A stretch of 64,000 nucleotides of DNA from an uncultured bacterium (GCA_963801165.1 CAWDDT010000005.1:576001-640000); one strand, 5' to 3'; numbered from the stretch's first letter, positions 13,745 to 36,170 are shown. Made by a program: numbers and translations. The notes: generated from the sequence alone by a model not told the origin.

Positions 13745-13802
13745 GTCGCGATGATTGTCGTGGCTTCACATGCCAGCGCAAGGACCCGACTGTCGCGGTA
13801 AC

Positions 13803-16023: not shown

Positions 16024-16101
16024 AGACGTCGTTGCGAGCGACCGATGACAGTGCCGCGGGACTGGTTACAATCTCGCCGGTTGGCGACTCGATCGCCACG
16101 A

Positions 16102-16190
16102 GGAGAGATGGCCGAGCGGACGAAGGCGACGGTCTCGAAAACCGTTGAATCCTGTTTGGGGTTCCGTGGGTTCAAATCCCACTCTCTCCG
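16102..16190 (+). tRNA. tRNA-Ser(CGA)
   Basis: GGAGAGA/TCTCTCC acceptor and ACGGT-CTCGAAA-ACCGT anticodon arm. Confidence 0.95.
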
Positions 16191-16279
16191 CTCTCCTTCC
16201 CCCAGCCGAGCCGGGGGAAGGTACCCGGTGGCGCAGCCGCTAGGTGGTTCCGATCTGGGGGAAGCGCTCCACAGCTCAT

Positions 16280-16363
16280 GGAGGGATGGCCGAGCGGACG
16301 AAGGCGACGGTCTTGAAAACCGTTGAGGTAACACCTCCGTGGGTTCGAATCCCACTCCCTCCG
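16280..16363 (+). tRNA. tRNA-Ser(TGA), integration target
   Basis: GGAGGGA/TCCCTCC acceptor and ACGGT-CTTGAAA-ACCGT anticodon arm. Confidence 0.95.
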
Positions 16364-16364
16364 C
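16307..16364 (+). repeat. attL (3' part of tRNA-Ser)
   Basis: ACGGTCTTGAAAAC...CCCACTCCCTCCGC, repeated at 35961. Confidence 0.92.
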
Positions 16365-16367
16365 TTA

Positions 16368-16398
16368 GCGAAAAGCCCTGCTACACAGGGCTTCTCGC
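16368..16398. terminator. Hairpin between the tRNA and the integrase 3' end
   Basis: GCGAAAAGCCCTG-CTACA-CAGGGCTTCTCGC. Confidence 0.55.
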
Positions 16399-17601: not shown

Positions 17602-17924
17602 AAGGTTCTCCCTCCCTACGTCTCGATGCTGCATCTACTCGTATCCATAACACGGAATCCGGTGTGGCGGGCTGTCGATCCATCGCCGGCCACAACTCTG
17701 AGACGGTATGACGGCGAGTTCACGTTTCTCATCATTGCTCATCATCTCTCATTAGTTTGCATTACTTATACACCATCAATGTTGTATAAGAGTTATGATA
17801 GTCGAAGGAACCGAACCCGTACCGAGAATTCTTTCATGACCCCAGCCACCAACCCGCAGCGACCCCTCAGATTCTTTGAGGACAGACGAGTGCACACCTG
17901 TGGTGACAGAGTGGAGGTGGCACT

Positions 17925-20672: not shown

Positions 20673-20927
20673 CGACGGCCACGGAAGGTGGTATTCCCAT
20701 AACTGGCTACTCATCCAGATTGCCGGTTATCTCTCGCTTGTGGGCGCTCGATAACGCGCGCAGTGGCGACTGTTATGGGCGGCCTCGGCCTGAGGATGAA
20801 TCATGTCGAGTGTCTCATCGTCCCGCCCTCAACAATCCCAGGCGGGAAGTCCGCCGGTTCAGCTTCGAGATTGCCGTCCAGGTCGGTCGATAGAGTGTCA
20901 GATCATGGCACCACTCAGGATCACTTG

Positions 20928-21899
20928 ATGGACGCTACGGACCGCACGCGCATGGGGACGTTGATAAGGGACGCGGCCTACACGCTGAGCCACGTACGGC
21001 GAGGCTTCAATGACCCTCAGCTGGAGTCCCGCGGCGCAGACGATCTAGCGAATCTCGAAGTCCGGCGTGACGGCACGCCGTGGGGTGAGCTACCTGTTCG
21101 TACCTACATCTCAATCGTGTCGGGACTCGCCGCATTTGCTGTCGACCATCTGCACGCCTGCGCCCAGACAATGCTCGATGATGTCGACTTCGGTCCTGCA
21201 GTGACGGCCAGATCGGCCGTCGAGGCTGCAGGGCGAATGGTCTACCTGCTCGACCCCGACGCCGATGTTCGGACCCGGGTCGGCCGCGGCTATGGACTGC
21301 GCCTTCGCGGAGTTCGCGACACTGCAAACAATGTAGCCGCCCTCGCCGAGAGCGAACAGAAGAGCCGTAGTGCGCAGCTACCCACGGCCGACAGCGCGAC
21401 ACGCGCCGAGCTCGATGCAAATGCCGAGCGGCTGGCTACCGCAGTCGCCGATGCCAAGGCGAGTATCCAGCGCGTCATCGACCAGATGCGCGTGCTGGGG
21501 TTCAAGCCCCACCGCGACCCTAAGACGAGGGACTTGATCGGGATCGACGGCTTCGGTCAGCCAAGCGGACCAGAACTTGCGTACAAGGCACTCGCCCACC
21601 TTGACGTATCGGTGCTCGAACAGATGTACCCGGCGTGGTCATCCATTGCGCATTCTGCATACGACGCATTGCGCAATCACCTCGATGTAGTCGACGACGG
21701 GCACTCCCTAGCGCGGCTCGGCACCACAGACGCCAGCCGGATTGTCACTGCCGGCCTTGCCGCCGAGGCCGTTGTCCACGGGTGCGATATCGCGATCAGC
21801 TACTTCCGTGCCGATCCAGACATACGCCTGCGTCTCAACGCCGAAGTGCTTCCTGAGATCAGACGCCTCTTCATCGCTGCCGTAGACGGACAGGGATAA
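20928..21899 (+). CDS. Hypothetical protein, DUF5677-like
   Basis: ARSAVEAAG...YLLDP and Y..WS..AH motifs. Start uncertain. Confidence 0.5.
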   Translation: MDATDRTRMGTLIRDAAYTLSHVRRGFNDPQLESRGADDLANLEVRRDGTPWGELPVRTYISIVSGLAAFAVDHLHACAQTMLDDVDFGPAVTARSAVEAAGRMVYLLDPDADVRTRVGRGYGLRLRGVRDTANNVAALAESEQKSRSAQLPTADSATRAELDANAERLATAVADAKASIQRVIDQMRVLGFKPHRDPKTRDLIGIDGFGQPSGPELAYKALAHLDVSVLEQMYPAWSSIAHSAYDALRNHLDVVDDGHSLARLGTTDASRIVTAGLAAEAVVHGCDIAISYFRADPDIRLRLNAEVLPEIRRLFIAAVDGQG

Positions 21900-21962
21900 C
21901 AGCCGCGTCCGGTTGTCCACCTGGTGTCAGCCGTTGGGGGGACGGGGCGTTATCCTGCCGCG

Positions 21963-22550
21963 ATGGAGGCAACCCTCTTCCTGCTGACCGGGTTCCCCGG
22001 AACGGGGAAGCTCACGGTGGCTCGATCACTCGCCCAGCAGATCGAAGCGATCGGCGAAACGGTCCGTGTGGTCGACAATCATTGGATCAACAACCCCATC
22101 TTTGGGCTGGTCGCCCAAGACGGCATGACCCCCCTCCCGTGGACGGTCTGGGAGCGGGTCGGTGAGGTAGCCGAAGCAGTCATCCGCACCGTAGAAGAAC
22201 TAACCCCCCGAGGATGGCATGTCATCTTCACCGCCTACCTCGACGGTGTCACCGACACCGGGTACGCACCCCGCCTCGCAGCGGTCGCCGCGTCGCGGGG
22301 TTCTGTGTTCGTTCCGGTGCGGCTCTTGTGTGACCCAGAAGAGAACGCCAGAAGGATCGTTTCGTCCGAGCGGAGTGACCGCATGAAATCGATCGACCCC
22401 GGCGAGCCATTCCGGTTAGCAGCCGACGGTGAGCCCTACCACCCTGGCCACCCCAACACCCTGACCCTCGACATCACCGCCACACCACCCGACGACGCCG
22501 CGGCGAAGATCCTCACACACACGGTCGGAATCGCCGCTCGCCACGGGTAG
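21963..22550 (+). CDS. P-loop nucleotide-kinase-like (AAA_33-type) protein
   Basis: N-terminal LTGFPGTGKLT and R..S..R lid. Confidence 0.75.
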   Translation: MEATLFLLTGFPGTGKLTVARSLAQQIEAIGETVRVVDNHWINNPIFGLVAQDGMTPLPWTVWERVGEVAEAVIRTVEELTPRGWHVIFTAYLDGVTDTGYAPRLAAVAASRGSVFVPVRLLCDPEENARRIVSSERSDRMKSIDPGEPFRLAADGEPYHPGHPNTLTLDITATPPDDAAAKILTHTVGIAARHG

Positions 22551-23423
22551 CGCGCTCACCGTGAGCCGAAGACCGATCGGAACCTAGCCGGGCCACAGTC
22601 TGTCAAAGTCGTGCGTTTCAGCGTTCGTACGCTGCTCGGATCTGGCTCCCGATGACCCCGAGCTCAGCGCGGGTCGGCGCATCTTCCCAATCAGCGTCAA
22701 TCTTGCGGTCTGGGTATAGCAAGCCTCGCGTTGATTCATCCGCCCTCCTGGCCACCATCCTGAATCACCAAATAAGGGCCATATCGCACTGATCACCCAA
22801 CCACGCATATCGGCAGCTGCTGATCGGTTGGGTCGGTCACGGGAAGTGGTGGTTTCGGATCGCTGACGGGAGCAAGCAGATTGAGCCCGCTGCCTGCTAG
22901 CTCTGCCTATTTCGCAGGTTTTGGTGCCGGTTTCGTGGTGCCGGTGTTGTATTGGTGGAGTGCAGGTCGGTTCGGTTCCCGGTGAGGGGAAGGAACCATG
23001 ATGACAACCAAAGAAACCAGGTTCATGCCGGCGTTGTGGACTCCGGACATCGACTCGTTTGAGGTGCGCCAGGCTATCGCCGGTTTCCTGGCCGGATATG
23101 GTGAGATGACTCGTGAGGCCTACAGCTTGGATCTTCGGCAGTGGCTGAGGTGGTGCGACACCCATCAGCTGAAGGTGTTTGATGTGAAGCGGGCCCATAT
23201 CGAGTTGTTCGCCCGCAGTCTTGAGGCAGACGGCAAAGCGAGAGCCACCGTGGCTCGGCGTCTATCGACGGTGGCTGGGTTCTACCGATATTGCTTTGAG
23301 GAACAACTGATTCCTTTGTCGCCGGCGGTTCATGTGCGTCGACCCCGCGTCGACTACGAATCCAACACCACGGGATTGGATCGCAACGAGCTTGGCATGT
23401 TCTTAGTCCAAGCCGGACTCGCC

Positions 23424-24842
23424 GGGCCTGTCAGATGCTTTGTGTAAGTGGGGTGGCCTGACATAGTGGCCCTGGACGCGGGTGGCGTTTGGGGTCTGTG
23501 GAAGGACCCACTGATGATGATTGACAAGGACGAGGCGACGGAGGTGGCGAAGGCTGCTGCGACTCCGCTGGTGTCGGCTGAGGTGTTGGACGAGTTGATG
23601 GCTCGGGTCAATGATGAAGGAGCCGAGCTGTTGGGCCCTGAGGGGCTGTTGTCGCAGGTGACCAAGGCGGTGTTGGAACGGGCTTTGGATGAGGAACTGA
23701 CTGGCGAGTTGGGTTATGAGAAGCATGACCCGGCGGGTCGGGGTTCTGGTAACTCGCGGAACGGCACCAGTTCGAAGACGGTGTTGACCGATATCGGTGC
23801 TATCGATTTGGAGATACCTCGGGATCGGAACGGCGATTTCGAACCGAAGATCGTCCCTAAGGGCACGACCAGGTTGAAGGGCTTCAATGAGCGGATCATT
23901 GCGTTGTATGCCCGAGGGATGACGGTTCGTGATATCCGTTCTCATCTCGCAGAGATCTACGGGGTTGACGTGTCACCGGATCTGATCTCGAAAGTCACCG
24001 ACGCTGTGTGGGATGAACTCGAATCCTGGCGCAACCGGCCGCTGGATGCGGTGTATCCGATTGTCTATATCGACGCTCTGAACATCAAGATCCGAGACGG
24101 GATCGTCCAGAACCGCCCGGCCTATCTGGCCGTCGGAGTTGATTTGGAGGGCCGCAAACACGTCCTTGGGATCTGGATCGGCGACTCGAACGGTGAAGGC
24201 GCCAAGTTTTGGCTCAAAGTGCTTTCCGAACTCAAGAACCGCGGCGTCAACGACGTGTTGATCGTCGCCTGTGACGGTCTCAAGGGTCTCCCCGAATCGA
24301 TCGAAACCGTGTGGCCACAAGCAGTGATCCAGACATGTGTCGTGCATCTGCTGCGAGGTTCGTTCCGATACGCCTCATACAAAGACCGCAAGAAGATCGC
24401 CACCGCGCTCCGGCCGGTCTACCAGGCGACATCAAAGGAAGCCGCCGTCGAGGCGCTCGGCAACTTCGAAGACGATTACGGGACAAAGTATCCCGCCATC
24501 GTCAAGTTGTGGCGGGACGCTTGGGAAGAGTTCACCCCCTTCTTGGACTATCCGCCGGAGATCCGCCGAGTGGTTTACACCACCAACATGATCGAATCGA
24601 TCAACTACCAGCTACGGAAGGTCACCAAGAACCGGGGGCACTTCCCCACCGAGAAAGCAGCCCTCAAACTGCTTTATCTCGCGGTGCGTAACATCACTAC
24701 CAACAGAGGAGGTGACACCGGCACAGGAACATGGGGATGGAGCAAGTGCCTCAACGCACTCGCCATCTACTTCCCCGGACGATTCACCATCGTCTAACCA
24801 AAACCGAATGCCACCCACTTACACAAACGTGCTGACACCCCC
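23424..24842 (+). mobile_element. IS256-family insertion sequence (1419 bp)
   Basis: Terminal IRs GGG..TGTCAG....TTTGTGTAAGTGGG. 8-bp target duplication GACTCGCC at 23416-23423 and 24843-24850. Confidence 0.95.
23514..24797 (+). CDS. IS256 (mutator) transposase
   Basis: RNG...PRDRNG.FEP, LYARGM.VRDI, YIDA, CDGLKGL, QTCVVH and YTTN.IES. Confidence 0.96.
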   Translation: MMIDKDEATEVAKAAATPLVSAEVLDELMARVNDEGAELLGPEGLLSQVTKAVLERALDEELTGELGYEKHDPAGRGSGNSRNGTSSKTVLTDIGAIDLEIPRDRNGDFEPKIVPKGTTRLKGFNERIIALYARGMTVRDIRSHLAEIYGVDVSPDLISKVTDAVWDELESWRNRPLDAVYPIVYIDALNIKIRDGIVQNRPAYLAVGVDLEGRKHVLGIWIGDSNGEGAKFWLKVLSELKNRGVNDVLIVACDGLKGLPESIETVWPQAVIQTCVVHLLRGSFRYASYKDRKKIATALRPVYQATSKEAAVEALGNFEDDYGTKYPAIVKLWRDAWEEFTPFLDYPPEIRRVVYTTNMIESINYQLRKVTKNRGHFPTEKAALKLLYLAVRNITTNRGGDTGTGTWGWSKCLNALAIYFPGRFTIV

Positions 24843-25546
24843 GACTCGCCGGTGGGAGAGACCATGCTTTGGCTTGCCTGCTGGCGTTGAACGGGTTGCG
24901 GATTTCAGAAGCCCTCAACGCCGATATTGAGGATCTTGGGTTGGAACGCGGTCATCGCACCCTGACGGTCACTAGGAAGGGAGGCAAGATCGTCACCATC
25001 CCAATGGCACCCCGGACCGCAAGAGCCATCGACCTCTGTGTTGGTGGACGAGAGAACGGACCCATCTTCCTGAACCATGACGGCACCCGCCGCCTCGACC
25101 GGCACGCAGCTACCCGCATCTTCAAACGGCTTGCCAGGCACGAAGGGATTGAGAAGAACATCTCACCGCACTCGCTGCGGCACTCATTCATAACCGCCGC
25201 CCTCGATGCCGGTGTCGCTCTACGAGATGTCCAAGAGGCAGCATCCCACGCCGATCCCAGAACAACCATGCGCTACGACATGGCAAGACGATCACTAGAC
25301 CGGCACGCCACCTACATCGTCGCAACCTTCGTCGCCGGAGCCAGCCGATAGAACGCCCCGCTGGGCGTCGCCACCACCCACCGTGATGGCGCCGCGCCTA
25401 TCTGCCGGCTCGGGGACGCGAGTTGGTAGTCTATCCCGTAGCCGATCGGCGGGAAGAGCCGGGCGCCACTCGGCATCCGGCATATCACCTACCCAATACC
25501 ACGGCCTTGCGCGGCCCGTGGGGTACCCCGCCTCCGACGCTAGGTC

Positions 25547-26305
25547 CTAAGGCGAGCTGTTCACACCCGGGTCTTCGTTCGGGGGCGGAATGGGAATAGG
25601 CACGAGGTTGATTGTCTTACCTGGGACGTCGAGGCTGAAGCTGGCACACGGCCGTTCGTCAGTGGGTTCAGTCGCCACCACCATGCGCCACGTTGTCAGG
25701 TTATGGCTGTCTAGCAGTTGGTTGATCCGTTGCTGGGCATCGGCGATAGAGAGGCACTCCTCAGTATGGAACATGTCGACGAGGAGACTGATGAGTGCGG
25801 TGTTGTCATCTGGGGTGCGTGTTGGTTCGTGGTTGGCGAGGCCAAGTTCCTTGCACAGCGATTCATCGTGGCTTGGGAAGACCCACAGGGTGCCGGTGTC
25901 GTTGACGCATCCGACGAGTGAAGGGATTTCCCCTTTGTCTACCGATTCGGACTTGAGTGTGCCGTCTCGCCAGGGCTGCTCGCACGCAGCAACGGTCAGC
26001 GCTGGTGGGGCGGCGACCGCTTCTCGTGTCGAGTCGAGGGTGGTGGCTTCGTAGCAGACAACGACGCTGGGTTGTGTGGCTGGGCGGGCGAGGTAGTAGG
26101 CGGCAGCAACGCCGGCCAGTGCAGCGGCGGCTGCAATGGCTACGGTCAGGACTCGTCGTTTCCCTTGCGCCACAGTGGGAGTGTCCGCCTTGGCGGCCGC
26201 CTTGACACGCTGGCCGAAGTCCGATTCGGGGCCGGGCATGTCTTTGAGTGGCGCGGGATCGGACCGGCGCAGCATCTCGAACGGGTCTTCGTTATCTTTG
26301 GGCAC
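25547..26305 (-). CDS. Putative single-TM anti-sigma factor with Cys-rich extracytoplasmic domain
   Basis: DPFEMLRRSDPAP N-terminus, RR plus hydrophobic TM, six Cys. Overlaps the 3' end of the ECF sigma gene. Confidence 0.65.
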   Translation of the reverse strand: MPKDNEDPFEMLRRSDPAPLKDMPGPESDFGQRVKAAAKADTPTVAQGKRRVLTVAIAAAAALAGVAAAYYLARPATQPSVVVCYEATTLDSTREAVAAPPALTVAACEQPWRDGTLKSESVDKGEIPSLVGCVNDTGTLWVFPSHDESLCKELGLANHEPTRTPDDNTALISLLVDMFHTEECLSIADAQQRINQLLDSHNLTTWRMVVATEPTDERPCASFSLDVPGKTINLVPIPIPPPNEDPGVNSSP

Positions 26306-26927
26306 ACGCACCCCCTGATTCTCCCGGTTCGTCCCCTCGGCTTGTGTCTGATATGGATGTGTCCGCCTCACCAGGATTGTCGTCCGTCCCCAACCGGCTC
26401 AGCTGTTGCTCAAGGCGCTTGCGTGCCGAATAGCGGCGATCTCGCACTCTGTCGGGCCGAATGTCGAGGACGATTCCGATTTCGCTATTGCTGAGCCCTT
26501 CGAAAGCTGCGAGGCGTATGAGTTCTTGGTCTATTGGAGAAAGCTGCGCTAGCGCCAGCAAGATTGCGTCTGATCCCTCGCTGGAGGTGACCAGTTCGGC
26601 GGGATTGTCGCTGCGTTTCTGCCGCCAATCAGTTGTGAGGCGATCGACCAACCGGCGCCTACGGGATCGTGCACGGTGTTGGTTGGCGAGGACACGGCGA
26701 GCGACCCCGTACAGCCAAGCTATGTGTACGTCGGCGGAGCGCACCTGATGAAGCTTGCGCCAAGCGACCACATAGACCTCGGCCACTGCATCGTCGGCGT
26801 CCTCAGGAGTCGCCGCCCGCCTCCTGCAATAGGCAACGACCTGTCTGAAGGTTGCTGCATGAAGCTCGTCAAAGAACCGATCCGCTTGCAGGCTGGCTTC
26901 CCTCGCGGTGTTGTCTTTGGCAGCCAC
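26292..26927 (-). CDS. ECF RNA polymerase sigma factor
   Basis: DADDAVAEVYVVAWRK, WLYGVARRVLAN and region 4 EGLS..EIG.VL. Confidence 0.92.
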   Translation of the reverse strand: MAAKDNTAREASLQADRFFDELHAATFRQVVAYCRRRAATPEDADDAVAEVYVVAWRKLHQVRSADVHIAWLYGVARRVLANQHRARSRRRRLVDRLTTDWRQKRSDNPAELVTSSEGSDAILLALAQLSPIDQELIRLAAFEGLSNSEIGIVLDIRPDRVRDRRYSARKRLEQQLSRLGTDDNPGEADTSISDTSRGDEPGESGGACAQR

Positions 26928-26948
26928 GTCCCCCCTCAGGACGGCAGG

Positions 26949-27548
26949 TCATGTGATCCACACCGACGACACGTCGTTGTTCCATCCCGTGGCCATCGAT
27001 GTAGCCACATCGTACGCTTGAGTCTGACTTGTCGGATACCAGTCACCAGTGCCGCCGGCGAGATCAGCGAAGTACGCAGAGCATGCGCCGATTTTGAACG
27101 ACGACGTCTTCTGGTTGAAACCCGAATCCACAAGGTTGTACCACACTTGTCGGCCCCGGAGATAAAGAGCCGATCCCGTATAGGACGTGCCGTCGTAGAG
27201 ACGCACGGAGCTGGAGCAGTACGTCACACCCATCGTTGCAGCGTCCAGGTCTTGGTGAGGACGGGCTTCGACTTGCGGTAGCTTGCTCTCGAGCTCGGCG
27301 ATCCGCTTGTCCATCTCCACCTCGGTGCGGAAACACTCCGGTGTGTCGATGGCCGCTGGCCAGACCATGCACGCAGCGGCGCCCTCCCAATCACGGCTCA
27401 TGTCAATGAGCTCGCCCTCAAACAACGCCAGGGTCGCCTCTGCACTAGGCGGCGCTTCGTTCTCCGAAGCGGATGCCGTTGCCGGCGCCGCCATCACAAT
27501 GAACATGGCAATCGTCACAATCAAGCGAGTGATTCGTCGGTAATCCAT
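26949..27548 (-). CDS. Secreted protein with beta/gamma-crystallin / peptidase-inhibitor-I36-like C-terminal repeats
   Basis: Signal peptide (..ATA-SA), LYDGTSYTG, FNQKTSS and WNNDVSS motifs. Confidence 0.65.
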   Translation of the reverse strand: MDYRRITRLIVTIAMFIVMAAPATASASENEAPPSAEATLALFEGELIDMSRDWEGAAACMVWPAAIDTPECFRTEVEMDKRIAELESKLPQVEARPHQDLDAATMGVTYCSSSVRLYDGTSYTGSALYLRGRQVWYNLVDSGFNQKTSSFKIGACSAYFADLAGGTGDWYPTSQTQAYDVATSMATGWNNDVSSVWIT

Positions 27549-27602
27549 AGTCTGTGTCTCTCCTTTGCTAAACGGCGCCTGGCATCGCGCCGGCGCAGCA
27601 AC

Positions 27603-27631
27603 AGAACCACGCCTATCAGGATGTGTGTCCG
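27603..27631 (-). promoter_or_regulatory. Putative ECF promoter CGGACAC-N16-GGTTCT
   Basis: Upstream of the secreted gene; near-identical motif at 28553. Confidence 0.45.
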
Positions 27632-27746
27632 GGTACGGTCAAACGTCGGCGACATTTCTTAGCGAACCGACACTAATAACACGACCAGTTCTCTCAGGAG
27701 GTGACTCATCGCACAAGTAGTAGGGCTGTCGCTGAGCAGCAACGCC

Positions 27747-28307
27747 GTGTGCGCGCTGTCAGTGTCCACCCTCATTGCCAGTCAACACGGACTCATCGAT
27801 CACCTGCGCCAAACAGGAGTTCGGGTTGTTCCGGTTGCTCAAGGAAGGTCGTATCCGCCCTGGATTCATGTGATCGCGTGGGAGGAGCTGGCAGAATGGA
27901 AGGCCGAGGACACTCCCAGCCTGATCGTAATCGCGCAGCGGGCAGACGAGTCTGAGCAACGGTTAGCCGCCAAACTTGGTGCGGCGGCGCTGATCGCCGA
28001 CGATAGGTTACGCGAAGATTTCGCGTCGGTTATTCAGGCTGTGACGGCAGGCTTCTACCCGGTGCCCCTTCGCGTCGCTCCGAGTCTGGCATCCCGCATT
28101 GCCGTTCCCCCGGCCAGCATCGGGTTGGATGACGTCGCCATACTGAAGTACCTGCTGCAAGGGGCGACCGTTGCGGATGTCGCAGCTGAGATGGGATGCT
28201 CCGAGCGGCATGCCCGCCGCAAACTACGGACAGTATGGGATCAAATGGGGGTTAGTGGGCGCCGAGAAGGCCTTGCCGAAGCCGTACGGTGGGGACTGTC
28301 GCATTGA
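27747..28307 (+). CDS. LuxR/NarL-type HTH regulator with degenerate receiver-like N-terminus
   Basis: C-terminal G.TVADVA.EMG.SER..RR.L......MGV..R. Start uncertain. Confidence 0.7.
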   Translation: MCALSVSTLIASQHGLIDHLRQTGVRVVPVAQGRSYPPWIHVIAWEELAEWKAEDTPSLIVIAQRADESEQRLAAKLGAAALIADDRLREDFASVIQAVTAGFYPVPLRVAPSLASRIAVPPASIGLDDVAILKYLLQGATVADVAAEMGCSERHARRKLRTVWDQMGVSGRREGLAEAVRWGLSH

Positions 28308-28552
28308 GGTCTCGACAGCCTCATCCAGAGGATCGATACCCCGGTAGGTGCTACGTGGAGGCCAACCCGAAAACGGTCGGTTGTGTGCAAGGCTCACCGA
28401 GCCAGGTTCCTATCCGACCTAACGCTGGCGTCAACAGCCACCACCGGGATCCCGACTGCCACGCCTCGTATGGCACCTCGCTGCATCCCATCTCCTCTCG
28501 CCCCGACCTGGGCCGCCCGAGCTGAGGAAGGCGTCCGACAAACAGGGCTGTG

Positions 28553-28580
28553 CGGACACATAAGGATTGTCTGGGGCTCT
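28553..28580 (+). promoter_or_regulatory. Putative ECF promoter CGGACAC-N15-GGCTCT
   Basis: Upstream of the small secreted peptide gene. Confidence 0.45.
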
Positions 28581-28609
28581 CACAGTGGGAGCCCTGTTGG
28601 AAGGAGATG

Positions 28610-28927
28610 ATGGAAGTGGAGCTAGTCGTACGTCGTAGACTGCCAGCGCTCTTGCTTGCGTTGGCAATGCTCGTGGGGATGCTGGGCGTCACGGCCGGTC
28701 CCGCAGACGCGGTGGATTGCATCCGTGGTGACACGGTGAGCTACTCGAGCGATTGGGCTCGAACCGTCGATGTGAACGGCTATTGCGGCACTGTCGGCGC
28801 GAATCACAAATACGACCCGGTATGGAGCAGCAACAACTACTGGACCGGTTGGTATTACGGTGCCGACGTCGCCCAGACGCCGAGCACGGCGGAGCTGTAC
28901 CTACACGCACATTGGTCCAGTTCGTAG
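28610..28927 (+). CDS. Small secreted peptide (bacteriocin-like candidate)
   Basis: SD AAGGAG, Sec signal RRR...GPADA, ~70-aa mature part rich in W/Y with two Cys. Confidence 0.65.
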   Translation: MEVELVVRRRLPALLLALAMLVGMLGVTAGPADAVDCIRGDTVSYSSDWARTVDVNGYCGTVGANHKYDPVWSSNNYWTGWYYGADVAQTPSTAELYLHAHWSSS

Positions 28928-28932
28928 TTAGC

Positions 28933-29541
28933 ATGCGACTCGTGAGAAGCGTCGTTTTGCTTGGGCTAGTTGTCCTCGTTGCCGGTTGTTCAGGCAACGG
29001 GGACAACCCGTCTGTCCCGTCGTCGTCGGCCGTACCCGGAGAAGATATCCCGGGCCTCTATCAGGAGGCAGAAGCTGCGGGCGCCGACGAGAGCCAGCTT
29101 GCGGCACTTGCGGACGCTGTTGTCACCTTCGGTGAGTATGAGACGTCGATGCAGCAGACGTTTGCGTGCATCCGTGATGCTGGAGTTGAGGTGGTGGAAC
29201 TGGGGACGGACGAGTCACGCGGGTTCCCAATACTCAACTATGCGACGGCGGCCAGCGCCCCCGGCCTCACAGAGGCTGAGGTAGCGGCGGCTACCGAGGA
29301 TTGTATGGTGCGGTTTGGCAAGTTCGTGGATACAGCATGGCAGGTCTATAGCGATGAGGCTGTCGAGGCATCGGATGCTCGTTGGGATCGGGTGCGAGCA
29401 CCGCTTCTTGAGTGTCTCTCGGCGGCTGGAGAGGATCTCCCTCCGGATGCGTCGCGCACCGAGATGCTTGCGGCGTCGCAGCAGATCATGGATCGTGGCG
29501 GGGTGGATTGCCTGACCGAGGCTGACTTCTTCGGCGAGTAG
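28933..29541 (+). CDS. Lipoprotein with four conserved-looking Cys
   Basis: Lipobox VAGC, VTF.EY......AC...AG pattern. Confidence 0.75.
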   Translation: MRLVRSVVLLGLVVLVAGCSGNGDNPSVPSSSAVPGEDIPGLYQEAEAAGADESQLAALADAVVTFGEYETSMQQTFACIRDAGVEVVELGTDESRGFPILNYATAASAPGLTEAEVAAATEDCMVRFGKFVDTAWQVYSDEAVEASDARWDRVRAPLLECLSAAGEDLPPDASRTEMLAASQQIMDRGGVDCLTEADFFGE

Positions 29542-29564
29542 TAGGAGGCGACGACATCCGAGTT

Positions 29565-30587
29565 GTGCTGTTGTTCGTGACGCTGGTATTCCTGGTCCCA
29601 GGTGCGATCTTGGCTGCAATCGTGGTGGCAGGAAGCGATGACCCTTCTCCGCTGACGGGTGACGTCGCTTCGGAGCCGCTCGTTGTAGATGTGTCCGTCT
29701 CGAGTCGTCTTGACGAATACCGGGTCGCGCTCACTGTGAATAGTCTCCCGCCGGCAACGCTCAAGGCCGTAGGGCTGTCCGGTCGGATAACCGACGTCAA
29801 TGTTGCTTCTGGGGCAACGTTGACCTCCGGTGACCCGATTCTGGCAGTAGGTGACGTCGAGCGACTGGCCATGGTGGCCGACGGTCCGCTGTGGCGTGAC
29901 CTCGGCAGCGGCGACAACGGTGATGATGTCGAGAGGCTGCAGCGGTTCCTCACCGACCTTGGCTACGACACGAGTGGGGCGGACGGTTCCGTTGGTCCGA
30001 GCACGTTGGCAGCGATTCGAGCGTTCAACAACGACTACGGGTGGGGTCAGCCGTCGGGCCTGTTTCGTAGCGGTGCCGTCATCTGGATCGGGGCAACCGA
30101 CTTCGCTGTGGGCGAAGTGGCTGTCAAGACCGGAGATCTGATCGACGGCGGCCAAGAGCTCGCCATTGGCCCCGAATATGCCAAGTCGGTGACAGTGGCA
30201 GAACCGCCCAATGCCCCCAGGCAAACAGATGAGGACTACGTCCTGGTTGTAGAAGGCATTTCTGTTCCCTACGTACCGGGGTCGGACGTAATCGACGACT
30301 TCGATGACGCTCAAGCGGTGGCGAATGCAGTTGGTGACAGTGAGGAACCAGGCGGCGTCGTGCAACGCAATGAAGCTCGACAAGTCAAGGTCGTCCCCGC
30401 TACCGCGGTGGTGACGGATCAAGCAGGGGGACGATGTGTCTATGTCCCCGACGGATCTGGATTCCTCCCCGTTGCTGTGGAACCTATCGGCGGAGGCGTC
30501 GCCACTGTCGAGATAGACGCCTCGTTCAACCACGAAACCGTCCTCTCCAACCCGCGACAAGTTCTCGGGGCACCGACGTGCAGCTGA
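29565..30587 (+). CDS. Peptidoglycan-binding, membrane-fusion-like adaptor protein
   Basis: N-terminal TM, PLWRDL..G..G.DV..LQ..L..LGY...DG..GP.T..AI..F domain and VPATAV. Confidence 0.8.
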   Translation: MLLFVTLVFLVPGAILAAIVVAGSDDPSPLTGDVASEPLVVDVSVSSRLDEYRVALTVNSLPPATLKAVGLSGRITDVNVASGATLTSGDPILAVGDVERLAMVADGPLWRDLGSGDNGDDVERLQRFLTDLGYDTSGADGSVGPSTLAAIRAFNNDYGWGQPSGLFRSGAVIWIGATDFAVGEVAVKTGDLIDGGQELAIGPEYAKSVTVAEPPNAPRQTDEDYVLVVEGISVPYVPGSDVIDDFDDAQAVANAVGDSEEPGGVVQRNEARQVKVVPATAVVTDQAGGRCVYVPDGSGFLPVAVEPIGGGVATVEIDASFNHETVLSNPRQVLGAPTCS

Positions 30588-31216
30588 GCGCGACCGACAT
30601 CACACATCGATACGACCGCACAGCCTCACCGGTCCTCGACGACGTCACTCTTGAGGTGGGCCTTGGCGAGCGAGTAGCGGTGATGGGCCCGTCGGGCTCG
30701 GGCAAAACCACCCTGCTTGCGATCCTCGGCGGCATGCTCAAACCCACACACGGTCGTGCCGCCATTCACGTCGACGACGACCGAACCCTCTCGCCCGGCG
30801 GCTATGTAGCATGGGTACTCCAGACCAGCAACATCCTGCCCGACCGCTCCACCCTCGACAATGTCACTATCGGAGCCTTCGCCGCAGGTCAAAGACGACC
30901 TGCCGCGACACGCGAAGCCGGACATGCCCTCGGTTTGGTTGGCCTGTCCTCCCTTGCGACAAGGCCGGTGCGCCAACTCTCCGGAGGTGAGGTGCAACGA
31001 GTCGCCACCGCAAGGGCCATCGTTTCACGACGTCCGTTCATTCTCGCCGACGAGCCTACCGGCCAACTAGACCAGGCTACATCCGTACCGGTCCTTGATG
31101 CGCTCCTTGCTGACAGCGAGTCCAGAGGTGTGGTCGTTGTAACTCACGACCCTGCCGTCGCGCAGCGGTGCGATCGGATCTACCGGCTCGAGAACGCCCG
31201 ACTCGTGACGGCATGA
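30578..31216 (+). CDS. ABC transporter ATP-binding protein (MacB/LolD-like)
   Basis: GPSGSGKT, LSGGE.QR, ADEPTG.LD and VTHD. Confidence 0.92.
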   Translation: MQLSATDITHRYDRTASPVLDDVTLEVGLGERVAVMGPSGSGKTTLLAILGGMLKPTHGRAAIHVDDDRTLSPGGYVAWVLQTSNILPDRSTLDNVTIGAFAAGQRRPAATREAGHALGLVGLSSLATRPVRQLSGGEVQRVATARAIVSRRPFILADEPTGQLDQATSVPVLDALLADSESRGVVVVTHDPAVAQRCDRIYRLENARLVTA

Positions 31217-32352
31217 CTCGCACTCCGAACCCCGCACCTCGTCAGCGTTGGCCCCTAACAGCTGCGGTTGGAGAGGGAGTACGCAACGCGGCCCACGGCC
31301 GGACTTCTACCGCAGTGCTCTTGTTATTGATCGGCTGGGGAATCGGAGCACTCGCAAGCCTCGACGCCCGCAACGTAAACCAAATAGTCATCGAGGAACA
31401 GCAGTTCGTAGACGCCGGGGGTCGGGTTCTCGTCGCAGAAACACCCACCGGCGTAGACCGGCAGCGCTGCGACGCTCTCAACTCAAGTACCGGCGTGGTC
31501 GCGGCAACGGCCGTATCCCGTCTAACTGTCTTCTATGAGATCAGAGCCCTTCCCGGCAGCCAGGTCGCCGTCATCACCGCGACCAGCGGGATCGCCGGGT
31601 TTGTCGCCAATGCTGCTCCGGTCGGAACTCAAGCAGCATTGACTCCCCAACTCACAGAACGAATCGGAATCGGACCCGGCGAATCTATCGAACTAGTCGA
31701 ACCGAACCAACGCTCCGGACCAGTGACCACGAACGACACCGTTCCAGCAGAACCGCTCACCATCGGTCCAGCAGTAGATCTTGCTCTACTTGGTGACACC
31801 TACAACACCGGGGTGCTGATCCCGGCCGCTCCGATCGGGGTCGCGGATGCATGTTACGTTTGGGCTGAACCCAGCCACCTGGAAGCTCTCTCGGCGGCGC
31901 TCCCCGCACTACTCGTCCGTGATGGTGAAGAGGCTACCGTCCGACCGCGGCTCTTCGAAGGCGAGTTCACGGTGGACTACCAACGCCAGTACGACTCCCG
32001 AACGCTCCGTTATGGCTGGATCTTCGGGGCTGTCGTCCTCACCCTCGTATGGCAGCTACTCACCTGGACGCGCCGATCCCGGGACGCCCTATACGCCAGC
32101 GTCGGTGCTGATGCTTCTACTCGAGCGACAATAAGACTCACCGAGTGGATCGTGGTAGCAACTACAGGAGGTGTGTGGGCCACAGCAATAGGCATCCTGC
32201 TCGCAACTCACGGCGAAGTCCCGACCGACATTGCTTGGGAGTTCGTTGTCCGGCAGGTCGTAGCAACCCTCGCCGCCAGCACAGCATTGATTACTGTAAC
32301 GGGACTGCTTTGGCGGCGAGCATCGGTTCTCGCGGCACTCAAAGACAAATAG
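31213..32352 (+). CDS. ABC transporter permease (MacB/FtsX-like)
   Basis: One N-terminal TM, large extracellular loop, three C-terminal TMs; coupled to the ATPase. Confidence 0.7.
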   Translation: MTRTPNPAPRQRWPLTAAVGEGVRNAAHGRTSTAVLLLLIGWGIGALASLDARNVNQIVIEEQQFVDAGGRVLVAETPTGVDRQRCDALNSSTGVVAATAVSRLTVFYEIRALPGSQVAVITATSGIAGFVANAAPVGTQAALTPQLTERIGIGPGESIELVEPNQRSGPVTTNDTVPAEPLTIGPAVDLALLGDTYNTGVLIPAAPIGVADACYVWAEPSHLEALSAALPALLVRDGEEATVRPRLFEGEFTVDYQRQYDSRTLRYGWIFGAVVLTLVWQLLTWTRRSRDALYASVGADASTRATIRLTEWIVVATTGGVWATAIGILLATHGEVPTDIAWEFVVRQVVATLAASTALITVTGLLWRRASVLAALKDK

Positions 32353-32384
32353 CCGGCAAAGGCGCTGTCCAGCGCACCACCACG

Positions 32385-32585
32385 TCACCGGAGAAAACGG
32401 CGCCAGTGCCCAAGCGCCACACCAACGATGACAGCCGCTGCACACACAAAGGCAACAACGTTCCTCCGAAAGCGCCTCCGTAGCCATTCGCCCCGAGAAA
32501 CAACCTCAGATAGCGGGACCGAAAGACCGGATGCACGAGCAGTCGCGTTCCTAAGATGCGAAACGAGCCGTTCCTCAAATGCCAT
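32385..32585 (-). pseudogene. Truncated anti-sigma-like N-terminus
   Basis: MAFEERLVSHLRNATARA...LSEVVSRG..LRRRFRR plus TM, then an early stop. Confidence 0.4.
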
Positions 32586-32768
32586 GTCGTCTGCTTCATG
32601 TCCATGAACGCCCGAAGGCCCCGCAACGTTCCGTCCCCGAAACGGAATCGGCAGTCCCGCACCCGAAGCGTGGATATCGTAGGTTATCCGTGTTGGGCCA
32701 GGAGGGGTCCGAAGTCGCGATGCAGCGTCGCGTCCTGAAGCTGCGGCGAAACCGTCCCCGATCGCGAG

Positions 32769-32826
32769 ATATGGGCGATATCGCACCAAATACTGCGTGC
32801 GAGATATCGGCACTTCTGCGAGCGGG
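32769..32826. repeat. Repeated site A
   Basis: Left half matches 22772-22789. GTGCGAGATATCGGCAC is identical to 34433-34449. Confidence 0.65.
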
Positions 32827-32893
32827 CTGGTGAATGCTCGGTGTGGTCGGAAGGGCGAGCCAGGCAATTGGGCGATTGGCGGTATTGGTTCGG

Positions 32894-33304
32894 CTATGGG
32901 CGCAGTTCGAGGAAGCCGGCGGCTGCGAAGTCCTGGTCGAATGCGAGAGCTTCGCGGAGGCGACGGTCGCGCATGACTTGGAAGCTGGTGGCATCGACAA
33001 ACGAGTAGGTGCGTTCGTCGTGTTTGCGGAGCCATTCCCATGCCTTGTCCTCTTGCTCGGAGGTGACGCGATGAACGGTGAGTTTGGCCTGCTCGTCGAG
33101 GGCATCAATCCGGTCGATGAACCCGACCGCGGTGGTGTGTCCATCCTTGCGTCGTAGGAAGGTCCAGGTTTCACCCACAATGAGGTTGGTGGTGAGTACT
33201 TGTTCGTTGGGTCCGAGATGATCTAGCAGCGCCACCGCATCATCGTGTCGTCCGTCGCCGGGCAGTGACCAGGCAACCCACCAGCTGGTGTCGGCGAACT
33301 TCAC
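32894..33304 (-). CDS. vapC: VapC PIN-domain toxin
   Basis: FADTS, E, SFVDA and FD.DF acidic PIN residues. Confidence 0.9.
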   Translation of the reverse strand: MKFADTSWWVAWSLPGDGRHDDAVALLDHLGPNEQVLTTNLIVGETWTFLRRKDGHTTAVGFIDRIDALDEQAKLTVHRVTSEQEDKAWEWLRKHDERTYSFVDATSFQVMRDRRLREALAFDQDFAAAGFLELRP

Positions 33305-33531
33305 GAGTCGTACACGACCCGGTCGATCTCGCCTGGCTCAACCGACGCGTCTGGTGAGGCGAAACCGGCCAGGCGATGCCAAGGATCTTCCGCCGTATCG
33401 TCGTCCTGTTCGGGTAGGACGGCAGCCAATCCGCGGCGAATGAGCTCTGACTTGGAAATGCCACGCCTTTTCGCTTCGGTGGCGGCCTCTGCGTCGAGTT
33501 CGTCGGGGATCGTGATAGTGATCGTTTTCAT
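33301..33531 (-). CDS. vapB: CopG/RHH antitoxin (VapB)
   Basis: MKTITITIPDEL...A..RGISKSELIR; overlaps vapC. Confidence 0.88.
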   Translation of the reverse strand: MKTITITIPDELDAEAATEAKRRGISKSELIRRGLAAVLPEQDDDTAEDPWHRLAGFASPDASVEPGEIDRVVYDS

Positions 33532-33592
33532 ACCGACATCATACATACCAGCTGTGTCGTTGTATACATAGCTGACTCCGAGGCTGGCCCGA

Positions 33593-33660
33593 GATCAACA
33601 ATTCTGTTGCGAGAACGCTCACTTCGAACGGTGATCGAGATCGGCACGTCCGAGTGCGGG
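33593..33660. repeat. Repeated site B
   Basis: 42/55 identity to site C without gaps. Confidence 0.7.
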
Positions 33661-33691
33661 CGGGCGGCCACTCCGAGTCGTCACGAGCGGG

Positions 33692-34099
33692 TTAGTGGTC
33701 TGGGTGGGGGACAGCGATGACGGTGAGTCCGTCGATACCTGTGAAGTCACGTGGGTTGCACGTGTGTAGAGGTAGATCGTTGGCAACGGCGATGGCTGCA
33801 ATCATCGCGTCGTAAGCACGGGCTGCTGGTTTGCGTCCTGCTCGGCGCAACGCAGCAGCGACCTGGCCGAAGCTACGAGCGGCGGTAGCGTCGAAGGGGA
33901 GAGGGTCGAAGTCGGCTTCGGCTTGCTGGAGGTGTGCTTGCCGGGCGGCTCGTTCTTCTTCGGTCGAAGCTACCAGTGGTCCCACCGAGAGCTCGGCGAG
34001 TGTGATCGCGGTTATCACCGGCTCGGCGGGGAGCGGGTCTGTCTCTTGGAGACGTCCGAGCAGGATGAGTGTGCTGGTGTCGAGTATTCCGCGTGCCAT
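33692..34099 (-). CDS. vapC: VapC PIN-domain toxin
   Basis: LDTS, TLAEL..G, D.MIAA.A and T.N..DF. Confidence 0.92.
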   Translation of the reverse strand: MARGILDTSTLILLGRLQETDPLPAEPVITAITLAELSVGPLVASTEEERAARQAHLQQAEADFDPLPFDATAARSFGQVAAALRRAGRKPAARAYDAMIAAIAVANDLPLHTCNPRDFTGIDGLTVIAVPHPDH

Positions 34100-34102
34100 G
34101 GG

Positions 34103-34339
34103 CTAGAGGGCGGGGTCGAGGATCTGGTCGACGTCTTGGCGCAACCGGTCTGGGTCTAGGGCGGGGAGGCTTCGCCGTCGCCCGATCGCGGCGCCTAGCG
34201 ACATGGGTTCGCGGCCGAGGGGGCGGAGTTCGGCGACGGGCTTGCCTGATCGAGTGATGGTTAGTCGTTCGCCTTTTGCGGCGCGGTCGACCACGTCGCC
34301 GCCATGGTTGCGTAGCTCGCGGATTGATACTTCTGACAT
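34103..34339 (-). CDS. Phd/YefM-family antitoxin
   Basis: VSIRELRN...V......GE...ITR.GKPVA.L.P. Confidence 0.9.
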   Translation of the reverse strand: MSEVSIRELRNHGGDVVDRAAKGERLTITRSGKPVAELRPLGREPMSLGAAIGRRRSLPALDPDRLRQDVDQILDPAL

Positions 34340-34347
34340 ACCCGAAT

Positions 34348-34365
34348 CGTATCACGCGTGATACG
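34348..34365. promoter_or_regulatory. TA operator palindrome CGTATCACGCGTGATACG
   Basis: Perfect 18-bp palindrome just upstream of the antitoxin start. Confidence 0.65.
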
Positions 34366-34394
34366 GCTATGGAAGACACGCAACCAGCCACGCC

Positions 34395-34462
34395 GATCAA
34401 CAATTCTGCAGCAGGAACACGCACTTCACGCGGTGCGAGATATCGGCACCTACAGGATCGGG
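34395..34462. repeat. Repeated site C
   Basis: GATCAACAATTCTG...CACTTC...CGGTG...ATCGGCAC-N9-CGGG shared with B; right half shared with A. Confidence 0.7.
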
Positions 34463-34522
34463 TGGCCGAACACCCAACGTGACGATCGTCACTGGCGAGG
34501 CGTCCCGCCCCCGACGACGACC

Positions 34523-35485
34523 TCATGAGACTCTGGCGCCTTTACGGATGTTGCACCGCAGGTGAGCGGTCCACACGTTGTCCTCAACATGTCGGCCACC
34601 GGCGGCCAACGGGAGTCGGTGGTCCAGGGATGGGCTCTGGGGGTCGGGGTGACGGAGAGCGCGGTCGACGGGGCAGTGACAGAGTTGGCAGGTCCAACTG
34701 TCACGCTCGTAGATGGCGATCGGGTCGATGCGGTCAACCCCTCCGTCTGTTCCGGCCATGCGCTGCCGTCGTGCGTGGCGAGCAGTTGAGGCGGACGCAC
34801 GGTTCAGGGCCTTAGAGCGTTGGGAGAATGCCGAAGTCCATAGCGTCGGGATCTCCTCGGCCACGCAGATCGGGGCGGACCAGGAGTAGCTCCGGCCGTC
34901 CTCATCGAGGTCTCGGAAGGTCTCCCACGTCCAGATCCAGCGCTTACCTTCGTGGGTGAAGAAGGTCCGGACTGGGATCTGGTCCCCGGCGGGATCGAGA
35001 CACAGGAACCAGATGCCGCCGACTAGGCCGTCGGTCGTTGCGCCGACGATTGCGTGAGCCCGGGTGTTGTGGTGCAGACACACCGCCGCCTCGTGTTCCT
35101 CGTCACCGAGGAGATAGGGCTCACGGGGCAGGTACAGCGTCACCGAGCCATGGCGCTCGACCACATCGCCAACGAGTGGTGCCCAGCCGAGGAACTCGTA
35201 TGGGAACTCGGCAGCTGGATCAGTGCCGAAGACCACGCCGCCCGGATCATGCACCAGGGGGGTCGGTGTCGGCGTCGTCAGCGTGCCGCGGGTTACGCTG
35301 CGCCTGAGACGCCGGCGGAGGTTCGCGTTGCACTGGGGCGAGCACACGTGCCGGTCGCGCTGCTTCCAGTAGGCGCCGGGCGGGATGGGCAAACCGCATT
35401 GGACGCAGGGTTCCCCACCGGTTGCTCGTCCGTCGGGATGGAGTAGTTGCTCGTCATGCCATTCCCAGTAGGTGGAGTCGCCCAT
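34523..35485 (-). CDS. HNH endonuclease with N-terminal zinc-binding region
   Basis: CxxC...CSxxC N-terminus and C-terminal RD...CQLC...DH..P...GG.H...N....H..CN..K. Confidence 0.85.
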   Translation of the reverse strand: MGDSTYWEWHDEQLLHPDGRATGGEPCVQCGLPIPPGAYWKQRDRHVCSPQCNANLRRRLRRSVTRGTLTTPTPTPLVHDPGGVVFGTDPAAEFPYEFLGWAPLVGDVVERHGSVTLYLPREPYLLGDEEHEAAVCLHHNTRAHAIVGATTDGLVGGIWFLCLDPAGDQIPVRTFFTHEGKRWIWTWETFRDLDEDGRSYSWSAPICVAEEIPTLWTSAFSQRSKALNRASASTARHARRQRMAGTDGGVDRIDPIAIYERDSWTCQLCHCPVDRALRHPDPQSPSLDHRLPLAAGGRHVEDNVWTAHLRCNIRKGARVS

Positions 35486-35519
35486 GCGACCAGTATCGCG
35501 TCTAGGCGTCGGCGCACAA

Positions 35520-35776
35520 GGGCGCTGGTGGCTCTTCTCGGGGCGTCGAGCGAGCACGAGGGCCGCGGGCTCGGCGCCGGTCTCCTCGCCGACGCCATCA
35601 GCCGGGCGGCGCAGCTCGGCACCGAGATCGGATGCCGGGGCTTGCTGGTTCACGCCGAGACACCTCAGGCCCGCGACTTCTACCTCTATCTCATCCCCGA
35701 GTTCGAGCCGTCACCGACCGACGCCCTCCATCTCGTCTTGCTCATGAAGGACATCCTCAGAACCCTCCACGACTGA
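35520..35776 (+). pseudogene. 3' fragment of a GNAT acetyltransferase toxin (TacT/AtaT-like)
   Basis: HEGRGLG..LL.DA...A......G..GLLVHA....A..FY....FEPSPTD..HL..LMKD; N-terminal half absent. Confidence 0.7.
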
Positions 35777-35960
35777 CGCCCGGCCGTGAGCACGGCGAGC
35801 AGTCTTCCGCATCTCGGGGCGCGCTGGGGGCGCGGGAGAATGAAAAACGATGCAAACCACTGGGAGATGACCAATGATGATGAGTGGTCGAAAACCTCTG
35901 TGCCATAACGGTTTTCGGCATTATCGCCAGCTATTTGGCGACTTCCGAGAAACGCCCCGA

Positions 35961-36018
35961 ACGGTCTTGAAAACCGTTGAGGTAATACCTCCGTGGGTTC
36001 GAATCCCACTCCCTCCGC
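35961..36018 (+). repeat. attR (duplicated tRNA-Ser 3' part)
   Basis: 57/58 identical to 16307-16364. Confidence 0.92.
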
Positions 36019-36170
36019 CAGCGAAAAGTCCTGCTACACAGGGCTTTTCACTGCATGCGGGTCGATCGTTAGCACCGCACCAGCAGGCCCGATTGGCGCG
36101 CGGGGCAGCTCCGAACCCTGCATCGGGGGGCCTATCGACGTATGACAATTCGTGATACCATGCCCCCGGC

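Follow-up and report, generated by a model that had tools for sequence, protein, structure and literature searches.

The stretch of DNA analyzed here (hereinafter, the window) consists of 64,000 nucleotides (nt) from the genome of an uncultured bacterium (GCA_963801165.1 CAWDDT010000005.1:576001-640000), and the subject of the analysis is a set of directional repeats in the window, denoted sites 0, A, B and C, which accompany an interrupted gene for a Xer-like tyrosine recombinase and a short series of toxin-antitoxin (TA) operons. The sites were placed with an nhmmer profile that was seeded with sites A, B and C together with three further copies of the core motif from the genome and then iterated over the whole genome. 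At the cut-off of E <= 0.01, the window contains only these four sites, all on the plus strand: site 0 (22764-22850), site A (32758-32847), site B (33592-33680) and site C (34394-34481). The core hexamer is CGGCAG in site 0 (22811-22816) and CGGCAC in sites A (32808-32813), B (33642-33647) and C (34444-34449). The first-pass annotation of this DNA, made from the sequence alone, had reported four related sites in the same orientation, and this is borne out, with E values ranging from 3.5e-07 for site 0, through 1.4e-12 for A and 1.4e-14 for C, to 1.4e-16 for B. Direct reading of the sequence also recovers the shared stretches that had been described, namely ATA.GGGC.ATATCGCAC-N17-ATATCGGCA in sites 0 and A, the 17-mer GTGCGAGATATCGGCAC in A and C, and the continuation ATCGGCAC-N9-CGGG in A, B and C, and the likeness of B and C is evident from a gapless alignment of 79 nt with 71% identity that was obtained in a repeat search.

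The intervals between sites A, B and C are short and simply organized. As first noticed, each of the two intervals holds a single TA operon, and a gene for an HNH-domain protein follows site C, with all these genes located on the minus strand (Pfam). Cassette 1 (32808-33641, minus strand, 834 bp from core to core) consists of a PIN toxin (32894-33304) and an RHH antitoxin (33301-33546), and cassette 2 (33642-34443, minus strand, 802 bp from core to core) of a PIN toxin (33692-34099) and a Phd/YefM antitoxin (34103-34339); in both cases, adjacent antitoxin and toxin genes of known families are predicted by Pfam, as in type II TA systems. The HNH-domain protein of 376 amino acids (aa) is encoded at 34523-35653 on the minus strand (Pfam HNH, 1.2e-05), in the interval from site C to the conserved right-hand terminus of the genomic island that hosts the array, and the 5' end of this gene along with the next ~200 nt is common to other copies of the island.

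The recombinase gene starts 187 nt from the core of site 0 and is split in two. The 5' part (22998-23425, plus strand) encodes a SAM-like core-binding domain (Pfam Phage_int_SAM_1, 2.8e-11) and aligns with intact orthologues, and the 3' part (24843-25351, plus strand) encodes the catalytic domain (Pfam Phage_integrase, 9.7e-25). Inserted between them is an insertion sequence (IS) of the IS256 family (23426-24842, plus strand) that has inverted ends, a transposase gene (23448-24797; Pfam Transposase_mut, 1.5e-121) and a target duplication in the form of the 10-bp direct repeat GACTCGCCGG at 23416-23425 and 24843-24852. The intact orthologues in related genomes are 308 aa long, and the 3' part of the split gene is 86-96% identical to those from the same genus. 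The split gene is the sole copy in the genome, and none of the ~18 other tyrosine recombinases encoded there is a close paralogue, the next best matches showing 29-36% identity with the exception of a 42-aa stretch at 50%. Because the only copy is disrupted, the local array is probably inactive, that is, frozen in this genome, unless the enzyme is supplied in trans. The 308-aa protein is a two-domain 'simple' tyrosine recombinase whose closest matches among solved structures, judged by sequence, are XerD (1a0p, 9e-17) and XerA/XerC-like proteins of archaea, but it falls well short of the equivalog cut-offs for XerC and XerD, given that an intact orthologue scores 137.6 bits against the XerD cut-off of 329.6 bits and 131.5 against the XerC cut-off of 335.15.

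The sites in the window represent a much larger family. The same profile finds 39 directional sites, of ~90 nt each and including site 0, in this genome (G000; contigs are denoted C), so the pattern seen in the window is far beyond chance. The original picture of a single small locus beside one recombinase has to be abandoned, because the 39 sites are spread over about a dozen places in the genome, mostly islands that carry an integrase. Most of the sites form same-strand clusters in which they are 0.6-1.2 kb apart, as in a seven-site array (C4:177482-182970) with a spacing of 573-1160 bp, and further arrays are found at C4:413554-419807, C9:375481-378625, C6:17806-18609 and C7:40475-41292. 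From 27 of these sites, a covariance model based on sequence alone was built, and it matches 36 of 41 related genomes at E <= 0.001 (34 of 39 when the unpublished genomes G027 and G038 are left out), with hits in all 14 other genomes of the genus and in 22 of the 24 others of the family. Two genomes in which no recombinase orthologue with at least 75% identity was found, G007 and G016, contain 28 and 29 sites, respectively, at 95% and 93% completeness. When the class was sampled evenly and a threshold of E <= 1e-6 was applied, 21 of 151 genomes were positive, namely the present one and 20 of the 36 others of its order, and not one of the 114 genomes from other orders of the class matched.

The cargo of the arrays was surveyed with Pfam among the open reading frames (ORFs) of nine arrays (129 ORFs, plus 61 chosen ORFs). 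The intervals contain single small genes or TA operons; the families represented between sites are PIN/RHH, PIN/Phd, MazF, ParE/Phd, RHH and VanZ, along with many small proteins that belong to no Pfam family, and Doc/Phd operons adjoin the outermost site of two arrays. The cassette genes are found on either strand relative to the site. This composition is relevant to the possibility that the repeats are not recombination sites but rather a TA regulatory element, a structured RNA, or a repeat akin to miniature inverted-repeat transposable elements (MITEs) or repetitive extragenic palindromes. Such an interpretation is compatible with the large number of TA operons among the flanked genes, with the position of the window sites 46-55 nt upstream of an antitoxin start, and with the scattered invariant bases of the repeat, which might serve in protein binding or belong to an RNA. 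A shared TA promoter or operator is nevertheless disfavored because the cargo is varied, occurs in both orientations and includes the unrelated RHH and Phd antitoxins; the sites also flank genes outside TA systems, namely VanZ, proteins of unknown function and the recombinase itself. Moreover, homologous cassettes start and end on the hexamer inside the repeat, whereas a regulatory element would be expected to travel whole with its gene, and the repeat is directional and has no terminal inverted repeats of its own. A TA operator or a MITE end, which had been named at the outset as the alternative that would undo the recombination-site interpretation, is therefore not upheld, and taken together with the results of the structural searches described below, a regulatory, RNA or MITE-like nature of the repeats appears improbable.

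The limits of the cassettes emerge from comparison of near-identical copies, which recur among different neighbors both in other genomes and in metagenomic data of a different study. Cassette 1 has a 98% identical counterpart at G005:C5:287846-288637; the identity starts at about position 32806 of the window, at the hexamer of site A, with a different left half-site preceding it, and ends 6 nt inside site B. A 92% identical copy of cassette 2 lies among other cassettes in G003:C23, and here the high identity extends from CGGCAC of site B to about profile column 34 of site C. In the case of the metagenome, which comes from a marsh (run X7), contigs align with the window from 33642, which is the first C of CGGCAC in site B, up to 34449, the last C of CGGCAC in site C, and a contig of run X2 tracks the window to 33652 and then continues with a different right half-site. 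Outside the window, the cassette at L001:7080-8247 is 97% identical to one in G014:C8, with the match bounded by the first C of a CGTCAC core and the last C of the next CGGCAC, and the comparison of C4:419033-419807 with G003 breaks at profile columns 51 and 55-56. The proposal that the sites delimit single cassettes is borne out by this recurrence with other neighbors and by the homology breaks at CGGCAC, and there is good support for the sites as boundaries of mobile cassettes.

These breaks also change the interpretation of site A, which had been regarded as a hybrid of a left and a right half. The left/right composition is real but is not a special feature of this site: because the cassette homology starts and stops at the hexamer, hybrids are the rule, and in every site the left half goes with the left-hand cassette and everything from CGGCAC rightwards with the right-hand one. 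Block-wise correlations of pairwise identities, computed in order to locate the exchange point, are all near zero and thus uninformative.

The anatomy of the site was derived from a logo of 120 distinct sequences. The hexamer CGGCAC occupies columns 51-56 and is 92-98% conserved; A49 and T58 are symmetric about it and C45 and G63 nearly so, yielding short, roughly symmetric arms, C..GA. on the left and.TC..G on the right. The site extends ~50 bp to the left of the core and ~35 bp to the right, and both parts contain scattered near-invariant bases (AGA 1-3, C5, C8, T12, C19, A23, C25 and C29 on the left; CGG 66-68, AC 79-80 and GT 86-87 on the right), so that the site is conserved far outside the core, in regions that presumably serve for accessory binding. 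The left end, AGATCA.CAA.T, is similar to the core sequence AGATCGGCAC.T, and the break of the G005 homology at column 6 suggests that this end may occasionally serve as a secondary exchange point. Inverted arms and a 6-bp center at which homology ends are what is seen in core sites of the dif/lox type, and the layout corresponds to a double-stranded core for a tyrosine recombinase, flanked by accessory parts, not to an attC hairpin. Accordingly modified, the statement that the sites match neither attC nor dif is correct with respect to attC, there being no hairpin and no covariation, but not with respect to dif, inasmuch as the core has the dif/lox-type architecture.

The searches for structure gave consistently negative results. 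RNAalifold finds no consensus structure for 24 full sites on either strand (energy 0), no long-range covariation is detected by mutual information among the 120 sites, and single-strand folds of 10 sites on both strands have z-scores from -2.63 to +1.49, with 3 of the 20 below -2. The Rfam search of positions 22000-36000 produced no match at E < 0.1; a snoRNA-like match at E 0.12 was dismissed as a chance hit, and a tRNA-like reading of the right half, judged by eye, was dropped, ARAGORN calling no tRNA at the sites. These findings are pertinent to another alternative, that the arrays are classical integron arrays without an integrase (CALINs) and the repeats are attC sites. Co-oriented sites, single short cassettes and abundant TA genes are indeed typical of sedentary chromosomal integrons, and the sites are alike within one genome, as are the repeats of such integrons. 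However, the genome encodes no integron integrase, the best score against TIGR02249 being 66.6 compared with the required 265 bits (74.1 for the intact orthologue of the recombinase); the conserved hairpin is missing; and the exchange point is in the middle of the repeat rather than at a terminal GTT box. Furthermore, Cury et al. 2016 (PMC4889954) report that none of the Actinobacteria genomes in their survey had a complete integron. Given that there is no conserved hairpin, no covariation and no integron integrase, the repeats appear to be neither integron sites nor TA operators or MITEs, and their identification as attC sites has very little probability.

The case for the recombinase rests, above all, on linkage. 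Among 80 homologue loci from other species, sites were detected at 13, all of them among the 14 top-ranked loci, where the lone miss is a 3.6-kb contig with 8 nt of upstream sequence only. The strand of the site is that of the recombinase gene in 51 of the 52 site matches near homologues, sites occur on both sides of the gene, and the same association is seen at loci of the genus that were looked at separately. At five loci (L053-L056 and L058), the left half-sites differ but each ends in CGGCAC, and from this hexamer on, a leader CTCCAGCGCTACCT... is conserved along with the gene, with ~110-160 nt separating the hexamer from the point where the protein match begins. Because the leader is conserved with the gene from CGGCAC onwards and homology ends past the stop codon, the conserved module comprises the core, the leader and the recombinase gene. 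One of these loci, L058, has two copies of the recombinase gene on a single contig (8922-9776 and ~13565-14364), each behind its own left half-site.

A recombinase gene behind a CGGCAC core is also found in a sister clade of the enzyme in which the arms differ. In this clade (L069, L070, L071 and L078), the sites have the form GCCCATAW-CGGCAC-YTATGSGC, with palindromic arms around the same hexamer; the arms CATAA/TTATG are those of the inner part of dif. In L078, a complete Acidimicrobiia chromosome, a 71%-identical homologue lies amid five such sites, at -622 and -101 (direct, upstream) and at +888, +2259 and +3188 (inverted, downstream) from the start of the recombinase match, an arrangement that could invert DNA instead of excising it. 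Another clade (L075, L083, L090, L103 and L111) has a sequence of 18-36 nt located ~130-190 nt upstream and an inverted repeat right after the recombinase match, which looks like a compact unit of ~1.1 kb. In a quick tree, the upstream motif types track the recombinase clades, which is only a lead, the motifs having been set post hoc by eye on the same loci with no control. The GCCCATAW-CGGCAC-YTATGSGC type is carried by one clade only, and across the loci with at most 75% identity, CGGCAC with complementary arms is not enriched relative to control hexamers (3 vs 3, 1 and 1, counting same-strand matches within 400 nt upstream). Self-BLAST of the upstream regions of the 66 loci at this level of identity shows short repeats in some only. 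Sister enzyme clades in other Actinomycetota may run related systems with their own site variants.

The explanation that seems to account best for these observations, and that is held with somewhat better than even confidence, is that the four sites of the window serve for recombination in a cassette system, the 308-aa Xer-like recombinase being the most likely enzyme, with catalysis inferred from linkage. The asymmetric CGGCAC would be the region of strand exchange by the tyrosine recombinase, and a cassette is composed of a right half-site, one gene or TA operon, and a left half-site, from hexamer to hexamer. Recombination between two direct sites would release a circle with one complete site, and the circle could re-enter at any other site, so building arrays within genomic islands. 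TA operons are proposed to accumulate in such arrays because cells that lose them are poisoned. The gene for the 308-aa recombinase itself rides in the arrays, directly behind a core. The whole would, apparently, be a cassette system of genomic islands in a soil bacterium of the class Acidimicrobiia (Actinomycetota), a non-integron counterpart of integrons.

Several observations weigh against this explanation, some of them concerning the cassettes and others the enzyme. The right-hand ends of homology vary (profile columns 6, 34, 55 and 67) and so are not always core-to-core. No joints indicative of circular or deleted forms are present in the contigs of runs X2, X4, X5 and X7, although contigs cannot reveal rare circles. 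Between loci, homology is lost shortly past the stop codon of the recombinase gene, so that this gene is not a fixed cassette. Orthologues with at least 75% identity are found in 10 of the 41 sampled genomes, some as fragments only (the unpublished G027 is one of the ten), and sites are present in 26 of the 31 related genomes in which no such orthologue was found, so the sites persist, or are served, without the 308-aa gene. The 66 homologue loci at or below 75% identity yield no match to the site model trained on the present genome, and the motif types of the enzyme clades, as noted, were defined by eye without a control. Finally, other, longer integrases are encoded at a distance of 4-10 kb from most of the arrays in this genome, and TrwC loci are close to 18 of the 39 sites. 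The original claim of a cassette system run by this recombinase stands in that the family is physically tied to the sites (13 of 14 loci, 51 of 52 matches), but it is weakened by the broken state of the sole local copy and by the occurrence of sites in gene-negative genomes, and the assignment of the enzyme can be inferred from linkage and from the site variants that track enzyme clades.

The same observations lend some weight to a different assignment, in which the cassette sites are genuine but are acted upon by another enzyme, either the host XerC/XerD, to which such a role has been ascribed in the pdif modules of Acinetobacter and in IMEX elements, or a long island integrase, and the 308-aa recombinase is cargo or a multimer-resolution module that shares the core. 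Apart from the sites in genomes without the gene, the order-wide conservation of the site family is what would be expected of a conserved host factor; the genome has two Xer-type genes (C6:365905 and C10:159516), and the integrases near many of the arrays, 400-470 aa in size, are further candidates. However, the integrases beside the arrays are diverse, with no single kind shared by all of the arrays. With regard to host Xer, the genome contains a single dif-like sequence (C6:196551-196576), GCCCATAA-TCCACG-TTATGTATAGT, which, judged by the dif consensus, is probably the chromosomal dif; its TCCACG center and its arms are unlike the hexamer and the GAGAT /.TC..CG arms of the cassette sites. 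The location of the recombinase gene behind a CGGCAC core, both in its own clade and in the sister clade with other arms, also fits a cognate pair of enzyme and site. Action of another enzyme is accordingly judged the less probable option, although it is the only one of the alternatives with an appreciable chance of being correct.

The array in the window is located inside an island of ~19.8 kb that is inserted at a tRNA-Ser(tga) gene (16280-16364, plus strand, ARAGORN). The island is delimited by an attL repeat (16307-16454, plus strand), identified by BLAST of 16251-16480 against the window, and by attR (35961-36106, plus strand), which repeats the 3' half of the tRNA-Ser gene with its flank and marks the right island end; the two match at 87% identity over 149 nt (BLAST). 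The island encodes its own integrase of 417 aa (16381-17634, minus strand; PF00589 match at C5:592570-593097), a long tyrosine recombinase of the type found in phages and integrative and conjugative elements that is distinct from the 308-aa enzyme. The backbone also includes a TrwC-type relaxase/helicase of 915 aa (17925-20672, plus strand; Pfam TrwC 4.9e-83, AAA_30 5e-52). TrwC of plasmid R388 can recombine two copies of oriT, and it is conceivable that the relaxase uses the repeats as oriT-like sites, such that the cassettes result from relaxase-mediated recombination. A site is located within 10 kb of seven of the nine TrwC loci of the genome, and the array in the window itself resides in a TrwC island. 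Yet 21 of the 39 sites have no TrwC locus in their vicinity, the conserved hairpin that would be expected beside a nic site is missing, and a core that is symmetric about a 6-bp hexamer fits tyrosine recombinases, so this route to the cassettes is hardly credible.

Related islands in the same genome (C4:172-183k, C13:163-174k, C13:63-72k and C6:333-338k) share with that of the window (16280-36106) a tRNA-Ser-type attachment site, an integrase of ~410 aa and a TrwC relaxase. In L001, the terminal site is partial and meets the conserved right island end of ~200 nt at CGGTGAGCAG, and this junction looks like a backbone entry site. The window also contains, at 8570-16364 and 49259-49351, four tRNA-Ser genes and one tRNA-Leu gene, and three of the tRNA-Ser genes lie just upstream of the island.

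Insertion sequences are also found in and near the sites. Two copies of an IS110-family element (G000:C7:41228-42929 and G000:C13:71870-73374), 83% identical over ~1.5 kb, interrupt two different sites at an identical position, right where the CGGCAC core lies; on the left, the junction sequence is ..GA(A/C)CG|AAGCCTCTTTGTG, and in C7 the site resumes with CGGCAC past the element. This suggests a core-targeting IS, and IS1111-attC elements target the attC sites of integrons in a similar way. One full-length site (G000:C4:414910-414999) has CGAAGC in place of CGGCAC; this change is similar to the left end of the IS110-family element, and it may represent either a scar or an alternative core. 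Beside other site clusters, there are ORFs of 449 aa (G000:C10:23916-25265 and G000:C6:650746-652095) that match the IS256-family transposase of the window in length.

The broader proposition suggested by these findings, to which an even chance is assigned, is that the Acidimicrobiales hold a second, independently evolved integron-like capture system, in which a plain Xer-like recombinase acts on ~90-bp double-stranded sites with a dif-like CGGCAC exchange core, the enzyme gene is its own mobile cargo, and TA operons and small genes of unknown function are traded core to core between islands, species and habitats. Full-text searches of the literature retrieved no earlier account in which the sites or the recombinase are presented as a cassette system. 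If the proposition is true, cassette capture evolved more than once, and the system extends across an order whose members are abundant in soils and sediments. The pile-up of TA operons in genomic islands might then be partly explained. The site model combined with the recombinase would provide a searchable signature for metagenomic cassettes that are missed by integron tools, and a compact recombinase with a core of ~20 bp would be a possible genetic tool for Actinomycetota.

Integrons are the textbook platform for site-specific gene capture, and the present system resembles them in having arrays of co-oriented sites with one short cassette per interval, many TA cassettes, the same cassette in different arrays and genomes, arrays that often have no recombinase gene nearby, like CALINs, and site-specific insertion of an IS110-family element into the sites. 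It differs from integrons in that the enzyme is Xer-like rather than IntI (74 vs 265 bits for NCBIfam TIGR02249), the sites have no attC-type hairpin and the exchange maps to a hexamer in mid-repeat, the recombinase gene is co-oriented inside the arrays instead of being divergent at a fixed attI platform, the cassette genes point either way, and the host belongs to the Actinomycetota.

The pdif modules of Acinetobacter are described as short, often TA-encoding modules with Xer-type core sites that reside on plasmids and are shuffled between replicons, and Xer-type core sites around short, TA-rich modules are the common denominator with the system described here. In pdif modules, the sites alternate in orientation and the mobility is attributed to the host XerC/XerD, whereas the present sites are direct repeats, in the window as well as within each array on one strand, are located in chromosomal islands, are ~90 bp long with conserved accessory parts, and are accompanied by a recombinase gene of their own that travels with them.

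The third group of comparable systems includes XerH/difH, XerS/difSL, XerA and Cre, with which the 308-aa protein shares the two-domain organization of simple recombinases and the inverted arms around an asymmetric 6-bp center. The position of a site just upstream of the recombinase gene is reminiscent of Cre/loxP-type modules, given that loxP lies just upstream of cre. Mobile 'simple' tyrosine recombinases are placed in a few other subgroups by Smyshlyaev et al. 2021. Unlike the single-recombinase Xer/dif systems, the 308-aa protein falls far below the XerC/XerD cut-offs, and instead of one dif per replicon, there are 39 sites in the genome in addition to the separate dif-like candidate at C6:196551, and these sites bound cargo cassettes.

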